Source: Escherichia coli (GTDB lineage: Bacteria; Pseudomonadota; Gammaproteobacteria; Enterobacterales; Enterobacteriaceae). Taken from it: a DNA stretch of 64,000 nt. Position 1 is the first letter of the stretch, and each line of letters starts with the position of its first letter. The stretch lies in NCBI RefSeq assembly GCF_003334405.1, contig NZ_QOWM01000018.1. One strand, 5' to 3'. This document shows, one piece after another, positions 3,645-31,018 of the stretch. The notes under the pieces are model-generated. The model was not told the origin of the DNA and made no database searches. It saw only the letters and a program-made list of their open reading frames with translations. Both the position numbers and the translations under genes were made by a program.

Positions 3645-4847
3645 ATGATGAAGAAAAATCATATTACCCGCACCATCATTGCATCTGCTGTATTATTTTC
3701 CTTTAACGCTGCAGCAGCGACGTCATATTTTGAAGCACGTAACGATGCAATGGGTGGCACCGGAGTAGCATCTTCCCATTATGGTGTGGCACCTCTGGCA
3801 AACCCGGCTTTACTGACAAAGCACAACAGCAATGATGATTTCAGCCTTCTTCTGCCGTCTGTTGGGGCACAAGTTGCTGATCCTGATGATGTATCAAATA
3901 AAGCTGATGATGTTAAAGATGACTGGGATTTGTTTGATAGTGCTGTAGATAACCAGCATGGCGTACAACAGGCAGCAGCAAATCTTAAACATCGTCTGCA
4001 GGAATTCCGCAATATCAATGCAGATGCTCAGGTAGGTGTATCAGCTGTAGCAGCCATGGCAAATGACACTCTGCCGTTTGCCCTTATGGTCAAGTCTTAC
4101 GGAACTGTCAGCGTAAACGGAAAAGTAAACGATGCAGACCTGGATTATCTGGACAAAGTTGCCAATGGAACAATTACCGACGTCGATAAGAATGCCCTGA
4201 CCTCACGCGCATTCGGGCGTGCAGCTGTAATTACCGACGTCGGAATTTCATTTGCCAAAGAACTGGAAACGGCCGGACAAAAATGGTCTCTTGGCGTCAC
4301 ACCAAAATATCAGCGTGTGGACCTGTTTAACTACAACGTAACGGTTCGTGATTACGACAAAGACGATTTTGACGGTGACAAGTACCACAACACGAAAAAC
4401 GGATTCAACGCCGATATTGGTGCTTATACAGACCTGAATGACAACTGGACTGTCGGTCTTGTTGCCCAGAACATCATTCCACGCAGTATTGATACAAAAG
4501 TCGTCAATGGCTTTAAAGAAACCTTCAAAGTTCGTCCACAGGCAACCGCCGGTGTATCCTGGCATAATGACCTGTTTACCACTGCTCTTGACGTTGATCT
4601 GACTCCTGCCAGTGGCTTCACTTCTGACAGCAAACGTCAGTTTGCAAGTGTTGGTGCTGAATTTAACGCATGGAAATGGGCGCAATTGCGTGCCGGTTAT
4701 CGTCAGAACATGGCATCAAACTCCGGAAGCGCCTTCACCGCTGGCGTTGGTATCTCTCCATTTGACGTCGTACATATCGATGTTTCCGGCCTGGTAGGAA
4801 CTGACCACGATTACGGTGCAATGGCACAACTTCAGTTCACTTTCTGA
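3645..4847 (+). CDS. traF: conjugal transfer outer-membrane protein
   Basis: signal peptide, C-terminal aromatic terminus QLQFTF typical of beta-barrel OMPs; name by position. Confidence 0.6.
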   Translation: MMKKNHITRTIIASAVLFSFNAAAATSYFEARNDAMGGTGVASSHYGVAPLANPALLTKHNSNDDFSLLLPSVGAQVADPDDVSNKADDVKDDWDLFDSAVDNQHGVQQAAANLKHRLQEFRNINADAQVGVSAVAAMANDTLPFALMVKSYGTVSVNGKVNDADLDYLDKVANGTITDVDKNALTSRAFGRAAVITDVGISFAKELETAGQKWSLGVTPKYQRVDLFNYNVTVRDYDKDDFDGDKYHNTKNGFNADIGAYTDLNDNWTVGLVAQNIIPRSIDTKVVNGFKETFKVRPQATAGVSWHNDLFTTALDVDLTPASGFTSDSKRQFASVGAEFNAWKWAQLRAGYRQNMASNSGSAFTAGVGISPFDVVHIDVSGLVGTDHDYGAMAQLQFTF

Positions 4848-28448: not shown

Positions 28449-28544
28449 TCAGTCGATAAGTTCCCGGATCAGTTCCAGAACAGCAATCAGCGCGTTTGCA
28501 ACGGCAACTACTGCCCTGAGAACGATGATTAACAGATTAATCAT
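28449..28544 (-). CDS. candidate small hydrophobic peptide (type I toxin-like), 31 aa MINLLIIVLRAVVAVANALIAVLELIRELID
   Basis: ATG 28544 with GGAG 6 nt upstream; single predicted helix; complementary sRNA-like element nearby (see findings). Confidence 0.3.
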   Translation of the reverse strand: MINLLIIVLRAVVAVANALIAVLELIRELID

Positions 28545-28802
28545 CCGCTTCTCCATCACTGGAGGAAATCACCGTTGCTTACTCTTACATTGCCTGTCAC
28601 AACGGCACTTTCAGTGTTAGTTGAAAAGAGACTTCCTCCTGCCAGAGCACTGAACACAGCACCACCTGTTTGTTCAGCCAGGACTTAAAATCTTGCATCC
28701 ATAGTCCCGATGGATATCACGGCAGAAGTGTCGCCAGACAGAGCTAACCTGCGGATTATAAGGATGGTTGCTATCAAATGAACAGCTCGCTATTATAAGA
28801 AC

Positions 28803-28889
28803 GTTAGTTGAAAAGAGATTACCTCCGGTCAGGGCCACCAACTCTGTAACGGAACAGTAAAAAAACCGACCTCACCAGTCGGTTTTTTT
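28803..28889 (+). ncRNA. candidate ~87-nt sRNA (promoter -35 TTGCTA 28768-28773, -10 TATTAT 28791-28796; intrinsic terminator 28859-28889)
   Basis: sigma70-like promoter with 17-bp spacing, perfect terminator hairpin CCGAC..GTCGG + T7; 5' end 16/16 identical to 28616-28631. Confidence 0.35.
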
Positions 28890-29042
28890 ACATCTGTTGT
28901 TTCTCAAAATCCGCCCGACATGCCCGTCACACCGGGGAAACTCATGCTCTGAATCAGAACCAACCATCTCAACTTTGCCGTCTCCTGAAAAAACTGGCAC
29001 ATTCAGTTCGATAACTACCCATAAATACAGAGAGAAAATCCG

Positions 29043-29294
29043 ATGTCAGAAAAGTGGAGTAAAGAATTCGACTCTTGCTTTCAGGTGGGGAGCATAGAAG
29101 AAATTGCCGATGCTCTCGAGAAACGCAGCGGAAGCGAGGAAAATGCGTTAGCCATGCTGGCAATGACAGCCTTCACACTCATGACCCGACGTGGTATCTG
29201 CGAAATGCAGAACGTGGCCCCCGATGGCAAAGGCATTCGGCTGGAGCTAATGGGCTTCAGGGAAAATGAAACAATACCGGATACGCTTCATTGA
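29043..29294 (+). CDS. hypothetical protein
   Basis: 83-aa ORF convergent with pndA. Confidence 0.35.
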   Translation: MSEKWSKEFDSCFQVGSIEEIADALEKRSGSEENALAMLAMTAFTLMTRRGICEMQNVAPDGKGIRLELMGFRENETIPDTLH

Positions 29295-29365
29295 AGAAGA
29301 AAGGGCGCAATGAGGTCAGCCTTCGCAACAAAGCGGCGGCAGAAAACCTGCCGCCGTGTTGCCCG

Positions 29366-29521
29366 TTAACGTTTAACTTCGTAGGCTAACGTTGCCACAA
29401 GCACTGTGTTTCCCTGCTGGAGCCGGAGTCCGCAAAGCGAATCCCTCACCATCCAAACAAAACACAGAATCGTCACACAGATGACGATTAACATCATTAA
29501 AAACGTTCGCTGTGGCATCAT
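29366..29521 (-). CDS. pndA: Hok/Gef-family type I toxin PndA
   Basis: translated by hand: MMPQRTFLMMLIVICVTILCFVWMVRDSLCGLRLQQGNTVLVATLAYEVKR, GGAGG RBS; not in ORF track (under 60 aa); overlapped by longer pndC/mok-like frame 29373-29657. Confidence 0.8.
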   Translation of the reverse strand: MMPQRTFLMMLIVICVTILCFVWMVRDSLCGLRLQQGNTVLVATLAYEVKR

Positions 29522-29809
29522 AGCCCCTCCATTGCCTTACGGCGGTTATCGGGCTACTATAATGTTGTCTAGGCATTACAGTAGAGCCCTTGGTTGATTG
29601 ATAAAAAAATCTCCAGGGGCTTTCTGCTGTATACCGTCCACAAAACGCTTTCGGCATACAGCCTCAAGCGCCCGCAGCTATTCTAACGACTTTCGTATCT
29701 GCAACAATCCTTTTATCGCACGGCTAATTCCTCTGGTTAGCTCTTATCGCCTGCAAATAAATTTTTAACCTTTCCGTTTGATTTAAATTCCAGAAATGGA
29801 GACTTTGTC

Positions 29810-31018
29810 ATGTCTTACAATCGACAGCCTGTCGCAGAAGATCCTATGCAGATATGGGGCGCTGTTGGTGTCCTTCTTATCCTGCTGCTATTCGTCATAT
29901 GGTTATTCTTGCCGGAAGTGGTTTACGCCAGCTGCCTGATTCTTCATACCTTATGGGGACTGGTAGACTGGGGACCATTTCATAACTATGCAGCACCACG
30001 ATACAACCTGCTTGCCATGACCGGTAACAACGCCGCCCACATAAGCTATAGCCAGTGGGTTAACGTCATGGAGCAGACCATAGGTATTCTGTGGATGTAC
30101 CTCTTACCTGTGACACTCTGGTGTTTGTGGGAGTGGTATCAACATCCGGGACAAAGCCGTTTCACCCGCAGACCAGTAGATATTACCCGACTGCCACACA
30201 TCTTTGCTTCGTTGTCCCCTGCTATCGCCCCTGTACTGGCAGATGGTGATCCGGAAAAACTCTTTCATGGTGGCAAACGACCTGAACGGCGGGTTGCTCT
30301 CACCCCGGAAGCATTTGTCGAACAGCATACTCTCATCACCAATATGCAGCTCGATGTTGCAGCTGCAAGACGATGTTTCATGGCTCAGTTGGGTAAACCT
30401 TTAACGTCCTGGAAAGACATGGCACCACATGAAAAAGCGCTCTTTGCCATATTTGGCCTTCAGTATTTCCTGGATGATCGTAAGGCAGCATTAAAGCTCA
30501 TGGATACACTGAACCTCTCATGCAGAATTAAAAGCAAACGAGACAGCGGGAAATTCTGTACCCCTGTTTATTCACTGGCCAAATCAGCTTTCCAGAGAGT
30601 GATTAAAAGCAACGGAGCACAGCAATGGCTGAAACAACATCGCTACGTCCGCAGTGGGCTGGTCTGGCTGTATGCACATGACCTGCGGCTTACGCCACCC
30701 AACTGGATTTGGCTGAAAGGCGTGGACAGAACGCTGTTTTATGCATTACACCGCGCCAATACCACGAAAGGATTTATTGAAGGCGCTGGCGTGGTGGCCG
30801 TTGCACGTGCAGAGGCCGAAGCCATGCGTTTTGGCCTTCCCTGCCCTGAACCCTGTGTTGATGAAGCGGTGGAAGGCTTACGGCGGGATATGCTCAGTCT
30901 CGGTCTTATCTGGGATGAACCACAACCAGATCGCGACCGGAAACGCCGCATCCTGACCAACTGGTCCCTCACCGACGACATCCTGCCCCGTACACCTGCT
31001 ACAGACAACGAATTCTGA
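29810..31018 (+). CDS. trbA: conjugal transfer membrane protein (DotM-like position)
   Basis: 402 aa with N-terminal TM helices; first gene of trbABC; name by position. Confidence 0.6.
   Translation: MSYNRQPVAEDPMQIWGAVGVLLILLLFVIWLFLPEVVYASCLILHTLWGLVDWGPFHNYAAPRYNLLAMTGNNAAHISYSQWVNVMEQTIGILWMYLLPVTLWCLWEWYQHPGQSRFTRRPVDITRLPHIFASLSPAIAPVLADGDPEKLFHGGKRPERRVALTPEAFVEQHTLITNMQLDVAAARRCFMAQLGKPLTSWKDMAPHEKALFAIFGLQYFLDDRKAALKLMDTLNLSCRIKSKRDSGKFCTPVYSLAKSAFQRVIKSNGAQQWLKQHRYVRSGLVWLYAHDLRLTPPNWIWLKGVDRTLFYALHRANTTKGFIEGAGVVAVARAEAEAMRFGLPCPEPCVDEAVEGLRRDMLSLGLIWDEPQPDRDRKRRILTNWSLTDDILPRTPATDNEF

Follow-up and report, generated by a model that had tools for sequence, protein, structure and literature searches.

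The DNA examined in this study, called the window below, is one whole stretch of 64,000 nucleotides from Escherichia coli (contig NZ_QOWM01000018.1). An original prediction, made from the letters alone, placed a pnd type I toxin-antitoxin locus of the Hok family in this window at 29330-29700. The question raised by this locus is whether it is a complete and working addiction cassette and, if so, where its toxin, its mRNA and its antisense RNA begin and end.

Identity and plasmid setting of the locus

The identification itself was confirmed from several sides, since the Pfam profile, the UniRef entry for PndA, the Rfam leader model RF01794 and the IncI1 context all agreed. We are nearly certain that the locus is an intact and ordinary pndBCA cassette for post-segregational killing, belonging to a conjugative plasmid of the IncI1 type, that is, a type I toxin-antitoxin system of the Hok/Sok family. 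The system is already known, and there is nothing new in it. Its relation to pnd goes beyond mere membership of a known family; it is the known locus itself.

When a 701-bp query around pnd was compared with plasmid records, 1951-1976 of them matched. These were 96% conjugative and mostly typed IncI1/B/O, and 854 of them matched at ≥99% identity. The set of 1951 records included Escherichia (1365), Salmonella (417) and Shigella (109), and 1901 of its members were predicted to be conjugative. The best matches were 99.7% identical to the query and were annotated with a 'Hok/Gef family protein' beside an 'IncI1-type conjugal transfer protein TrbA'. The pnd DNA of the window was ≥99% identical to the spacer between trbA and excA in more than 800 sequenced IncI1-type plasmids. 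The annotated order in plasmid pU12A_B, traU..traY–excA–(HEAT)–(hyp)–dqlB–(hyp)–Hok/Gef–trbA–trbB–trbC–nikB–nikA, is that of the IncI1 transfer region, and the window shows the same backbone as trbC-trbB-trbA-pnd-...-excA-traY. Thus, the exact PndA sequence and the location between trbA and excA were found together in the window, and pU12A_B and other annotated plasmids agree with this.

It is well known that nearly all IncI1 conjugative plasmids carry pndBCA between trbA and excA. The pnd system has been characterised since about 1990, and on IncI1 plasmids it is usually annotated 'Hok/Gef family protein'. The pndBCA loci of R483, R16 and R64 were reportedly described by Nielsen et al. in 1991 and by Nielsen and Gerdes in 1995. 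The window shares with these IncI1/IncB plasmids the PndA sequence (UniRef PNDA2_ECOLX) and the trbA/excA position. In a published survey, pndBCA was the addiction system in all 125 of the IncI1 plasmid sequences examined, and pndB was identical in them (PMC5330492).

We also considered whether the copy in the window carries a disabling mutation. Compared with the best-matching plasmid, it differs at just 2 of 701 positions, 29456 and 29252. The substitution at 29456 is synonymous in the pndA and pndC frames alike, and 29252 lies outside the locus. Neither is damaging, and a disabling mutation was therefore rejected. No insertion sequence or frameshift is present in the pnd copy of the window. 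That is, among IncI1 plasmids, of which hundreds are ≥99% identical here, the single difference within the locus, as measured against the best-matching plasmid, is the synonymous one at 29456.

A second type I toxin-antitoxin system, consisting of a DinQ-like DqlB toxin and an AgrB-like antisense RNA, was observed at 28449-28891, 500-900 bp from pnd. Its features are as follows.

28449-28544, minus strand: DqlB toxin reading frame (NCBIfam NF041473, 67.8 bits against a cut-off of 35)
28804-28891, plus strand: AgrB-like RNA (Rfam RF02891, 58.5 bits against a gathering score of 40)
28616-28648: 33-nt direct repeat of the 5' part of the AgrB-like RNA, 187 nt away from it

DqlB-agrB is a known system; its validation was done on pOXA-48, and 67% of IncI1 plasmids are reported to carry it (PMC12365149). 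On the O104:H4 outbreak plasmid pHUSEC2011-1, dqlB is also located beside pnd (3659-3754 of the retrieved segment). For the IncI plasmid pESBL, an additional hidden toxin-antitoxin system has been proposed (PMC7602700). Because of the arrangement on pHUSEC2011-1, the DqlB system is a candidate for the additional system of pESBL.

The toxin frame and the overlapping pndC frame

Two overlapping reading frames are located on the minus strand.

29366-29518, minus strand: pndA toxin gene, 50 codons and a stop (Pfam, UniRef, RefSeq, relatives)
29373-29576, minus strand: pndC (mok-type) frame, 67 codons and a stop, with its ATG at 29576-29574 (open in four variants)

The frame at 29366-29521, translated from the minus strand, gave exactly the 51-residue peptide that had been quoted for it, MMPQRTFLMMLIVICVTILCFVWMVRDSLCGLRLQQGNTVLVATLAYEVKR, followed by a stop codon. 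Residues 8-47 of this peptide matched the Pfam profile HOK_GEF (PF01848) at model positions 3-42 of 42 with an E value of 1.6e-12. It is thus a peptide of about 50 residues with the N-terminal hydrophobic helix and the SLC...G...A..AYE C-terminal part of the Hok/Gef profile. The 50-residue form is letter for letter the UniRef 'Protein PndA (PNDA2_ECOLX)', a cluster found on at least 1000 contigs. In a BLASTP comparison with Hok of R1, the identity was 32% (E=2e-12), and the SLC, G and AYE positions were aligned.

The scores against the NCBIfam models fell below both curated cut-offs (68.8 against 89 for the HokA equivalog; 44.3 against 73 for the Hok subfamily), and NCBIfam holds no dedicated PndA model. 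It is for this reason that RefSeq gives the toxin the generic name 'Hok/Gef family protein'. The low scores also indicate that PndA belongs to a distinct branch of the Hok family.

In order to judge the conserved parts of the locus, we aligned the window with three relatives of about 91% identity, from plasmids typed IncI1/B/O, IncK2/Z, and IncFIA/FIB/FIC with MPF_I. Since these relatives are diverged by just about 9%, the covariation support that they add beyond the Rfam model is thin.

The toxin frame of the window begins with ATGATG. Each of the three relatives has GCG in place of the first ATG and keeps the second. The Shine-Dalgarno sequence GGAGG (29530-29526) is 7 nt from the second ATG and just 4 nt from the first, and the RefSeq annotation of the toxin gene is 153 nt long. 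On the grounds of this conservation, the spacing and the RefSeq length, the start codon of PndA is most probably the second ATG (29518), which gives a protein of 50 amino acids (29518-29366), not 51. The family and the frame of the toxin were thus predicted correctly, and its length has to be shortened by one residue.

A 94-residue reading frame at 29373-29657 on the minus strand had been regarded as the pndC/mok-type frame. This frame exists, and it is the correct one. What is conserved in it is the part of 67 codons from the ATG at 29576, which overlaps pndA and is open in all four variants, namely the window and the three relatives. Database entries list the exact 67-residue protein under the names 'ORF1' and 'post-segregation killing protein'; no NCBIfam family matched either the 67-residue or the 94-residue product. 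As in the overlapping frame of hok/sok, the ATG at 29576 lies within the complement of the proposed 5' tail of the antisense RNA described below. pndC is therefore likely to be this conserved 67-codon part, and the codons up to 29657 would be a non-conserved upstream extension.

It could be thought that the full 94-residue product (29657-29373) is the real pndC protein in this plasmid lineage, because the longer frame is open in the window and in one relative and a few database entries annotate 94-residue versions as 'post-segregation killing protein'. We regard this as very improbable. The ATG at 29657 is only 16 nt from the 5' end of the mRNA, inside leader stem 1, and has no Shine-Dalgarno sequence. 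In two relatives a 1-nt deletion ends the frame starting there after 26 codons, and the 67-codon part is still open. In addition, it is the internal ATG at 29576, and not the one at 29657, over which the predicted antisense RNA would lie. The lesson for annotation is that the toxin should be given 50 amino acids rather than 51 and pndC 67 codons rather than 94.

The mRNA and its antisense RNA

The RNA elements of the locus, including those whose placement is predicted, are as follows.

29680-29707, minus strand: candidate pnd mRNA promoter, with the -35-like TTGTTG (29707-29702), a 16-nt spacer and the -10 TAGAAT (29685-29680); read from the sequence, placement predicted
29661-29673, minus strand: tac-like 5' end of the mRNA, GGGCGCUUGAGGC (sequence and fold)
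29516-29673, minus strand: 5' leader of the pnd mRNA (Rfam RF01794, fold)
29626-29662, minus strand: leader stem 1 (fold)
29554-29584, minus strand: antisense-target hairpin, with the pndC AUG at its top and the loop GCCUAGACA, which contains CUAG (YUNR) (fold)
29325-29362, minus strand: long GC-rich hairpin that directly follows the stop codon of pndA (fold, terminator-like pattern)
29303-29317, minus strand: fbi-like element GACCUCAUUGCGCCC, complementary to the 5' end of the mRNA (fold, duplex scan, conservation)
29532-29563, plus strand: pndB promoter, with the -35 TTGCCT (29532-29537), a 17-nt spacer and the -10 TACTAT (29555-29560), overlapped by a perfect TATAAT (29558-29563) (conservation, colinearity)
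29567-29625, plus strand: pndB antisense RNA of about 57-60 nt (fold, variants; both ends predicted)

A generic sigma-70 scan of 29150-29850 reported no promoter and flagged neither the pnd mRNA promoter nor the pndB promoter. Their placement relies instead on conservation and on colinearity with hok/sok. For the mRNA, the TAGAAT and the ATTGT.GC core are kept in the relatives, and the sequence further upstream is not. The 5' end of the mRNA would be located 6 nt downstream of the candidate -10.

The leader matched RF01794 over model positions 1-157 of 157 on the minus strand with 134.2 bits (gathering score 59; E=4.9e-32), and the match ended at the toxin AUG. A full-length structured leader of the hok/sok type is thus present upstream of the toxin. 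Also within it are the stretch complementary to the PndB terminator and the GGAGG of pndA.

The model RF01794 bears the name 'sok antitoxin (CssrC)', and it matched the toxin-sense strand and ended at the toxin AUG both in the window (29516-29673, minus strand) and in the R1-type locus. In the R1-type segment the match lies at 332-503 on the plus strand and the hok frame at 501-656 on the same strand. RF01794 therefore models the mRNA leader of the hok family and not the antisense RNA. As a consequence, automated annotation with this model puts an 'antitoxin' on the wrong strand and makes it too long.

The original prediction expected pndB on the plus strand around 29540-29650 and could not place its promoter. 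The RNA predicted here, at about 29567-29625 on the plus strand, falls inside that range, and the promoter can now be placed at 29532-29560. The generic scan gave this promoter 8 of 12 matches and did not flag it. Among the three relatives, however, the -35 and the -10 hexamer do not vary and are always 17 nt apart, while three bases of the spacer differ. The promoter also lines up with TTGCGC-17-TATCCT, which occupies the corresponding place in the R1-type hok/sok locus.

The predicted PndB would consist of a single-stranded 5' tail (about 29567-29583), which is complementary to the pndC start (29576-29574), followed by a terminator hairpin (29584-29620) and UUUCU. The fold of the plus strand had an energy of -30 kcal/mol (z = -5.2). 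The hairpin was found in all four variants, with -25 to -30 kcal/mol on the antisense (plus) strand against -14 to -19 on the sense (minus) strand. Furthermore, a double change from U-A to G-U in the hairpin keeps the pairing on the plus strand only. This strand bias and the compensatory change support a functional structure that is likely to act on the antisense strand.

As for the 3' side of the mRNA, a GC hairpin at 29336-29356 had been proposed to mark its end. The hairpin exists, and its range needs a shift of one base: its core arms GGCGGCAG and CTGCCGCC are at 29355-29348 and 29342-29335 and form the core of the longer stem 29362-29325. A hairpin occupies the same position in the R1-type hok locus. 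The full-length pnd mRNA is not considered to end at the hairpin, since a conserved element complementary to the 5' end (29303-29317) is located 20-50 nt further downstream, so that the functional unit reaches 29303. The unit thus runs from about 29303 to 29707, and the lower bound of 29330 given previously was too high. It is proposed, by analogy with hok, that trimming by 3' exonucleases is blocked at the GC hairpin, which would thus set the 3' terminus of the active, processed form of the mRNA.

The pairing of tac and fbi, that is, of the 5' and 3' ends, is known from hok. When the RNA from 29673 to 29290 was folded, both the minimum free energy structure and the centroid closed the 5' end on 29303-29317 (z = -8.0 against shuffled sequences). 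In a scan of the whole mRNA, the same segment was the best duplex partner of the 5' 13-mer (29661-29673), with -21.7 kcal/mol; the corresponding pair in the R1-type hok locus gave -17.0 kcal/mol. The fold-back pair of 29303-29317 and 29661-29673 is thus found in the window. In the relatives of about 91% identity, the conserved block reaches from the mRNA promoter (about 29707) to GACCTCAtTGCGCCC(T) at 29303-29317. There it breaks off sharply, and the flanks beyond are unrelated.

A different view is that transcription already ends at the GC hairpin (29334-29356, with CUUUGUUG after it), so that the mRNA would lack the downstream element and control would be exerted by PndB alone. The hairpin with its T-rich tail does fit a simple terminator pattern, and neither a pattern scan nor folding of 29230-29372 found a convincing intrinsic terminator downstream of the fbi-like element, where there is just a U-rich run. 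We nevertheless consider this view unlikely, because the downstream 15-mer is the best complement of the 5' end in the whole region, and because it is kept to its last base in diverged relatives whose flanks beyond it are unrelated. The order in R1-type hok is likewise hairpin, 5'-complementary element and terminator, and the T-tract after the hairpin of the window is interrupted (CTTTGTTG). The preferred reading is thus that the full-length mRNA extends past the fbi-like element.

A conserved hypothetical reading frame of 83 amino acids (29043-29294, plus strand; WP_001291964.1 in RefSeq plasmids) converges on pnd, and its stop codon is just 9 nt from the fbi-like element. It had no match in NCBIfam. 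In IncB/O/K/Z relatives it is absent or replaced, and the homology ends there at the fbi-like element.

We may speculate that the IncI1 pnd mRNA, which unlike R1 hok would lack its own terminator beyond the fbi-like element, ends 9 nt from the stop of this convergent frame. The formation of its 3' end, and with it the moment at which the toxin is activated, might then hinge on convergent transcription, or else on the long-range helix of the 5' and 3' ends together with the U-rich tract. We ourselves give this idea very little credence; if true, 3' end formation of this kind would be a variation on the activation clock of hok.

A rearranged copy was observed on the Klebsiella michiganensis plasmid pPIMR (CP029771.1), in which 127 bp are perfectly repeated in tandem (1500-1830 of the retrieved segment). 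The repeated unit takes in the pnd promoter and roughly the first 100 nt of the leader and ends just before the pndC ATG, so that both the mRNA promoter and the PndB terminator complement are doubled.

Comparison with hok/sok and proposed action

Alignment with hok/sok, which had been suggested as a check, showed a colinear architecture in the R1-type locus, although the DNA aligned at just about 47% of columns. The pnd locus of the window resembles R1 hok/mok/sok (parB) in its promoter, its 5' end GG(G)CGCUUGAGGC, a leader recognised by the same Rfam model and an overlapping leader frame. The antisense promoter also has its -35, 17 nt and -10 at the same place, and the toxin frame, the GC hairpin after the stop and the 5'-complementary 3' element follow in the same order. 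The two loci differ in that the toxins are just 32% identical, that the NCBIfam Hok models score PndA of the window under their cut-offs, and that a terminator hairpin is plainly present after fbi in the R1-type locus, whereas none was found in pnd of the window. The srnB/srnC and flm loci of plasmid F are further hok-family members that kill post-segregationally under antisense control (PMC4147584). They are on IncF backbones and pnd is on IncI1, and they are likened to pnd here by description.

From these features the following mode of action can be proposed. A stable minus-strand mRNA of about 370 nt would be made from about 29673 to just past 29303. The newly made mRNA would be inert, because its 3' element (29303-29317) would pair with its 5' end. 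Slow trimming of the 3' end to the GC hairpin (29325-29362) may then free the 5' end, and the leader would refold and expose the hairpin at 29554-29584, which bears the pndC start codon. Translation of pndC (67 codons, 29576-29373) would permit translation of the overlapping pndA (50 codons, 29518-29366), and PndA would act as a small membrane-damaging peptide.

As long as the plasmid is present, the short-lived PndB (plus strand, about 29567-29625) would pair with the region of the pndC start, block translation and mark the mRNA for cleavage by RNase III. When the plasmid is lost, PndB would run out while the stable mRNA persists, so that PndA would be made and the cell would die. The elements at sequence level were observed in the window itself. 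The order of processing, the translational coupling, the RNase III cleavage and the relative half-lives of the RNAs we infer from what has been published on hok and pnd. The hok mechanism has been reviewed (PMC4147584), and kinetics, coupling and RNase III cleavage were reportedly treated by Nielsen and Gerdes in 1995 and by Gerdes et al. in 1992, as cited in that review and in PMC7602700.

For near-identical loci, post-segregational killing is supported by the literature on pESBL with pnd deleted (PMC7602700) and on pndBCA of pJIE512b (PMC5330492), and by analogy the locus of the window would act in this way too. In pESBL, deletion of pndB-pndA allowed plasmid-free cells to survive better (PMC7602700).

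The deletion of pnd alone left the stability and the growth of pESBL unchanged (PMC7602700). This result could be read to mean that the cassette has decayed into a non-functional hok-family remnant, comparable to several hok loci in the chromosome of E. coli K-12, and that the transfer region just carries it along as passenger DNA. Such a reading seems to us extremely improbable. In the triple mutant of pESBL, pnd does kill plasmid-free cells (PMC7602700). The reading frames, the Shine-Dalgarno sequence, the hexamers of both promoters, the tac/fbi complementarity and the antisense terminator are all intact and visibly constrained, the sequence is ≥99% identical in 854 plasmids, and the copy in the window is free of insertion sequences and frameshifts. 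We therefore think that the cassette is intact.

As a discovery, pnd in this window matters little. Its meaning lies in the identification of the window as IncI1 plasmid backbone with an intact addiction module. Neutralising pndBCA permits plasmid curing (PMC5330492), and the presence of the module bears on the persistence of resistance plasmids and on their curing.
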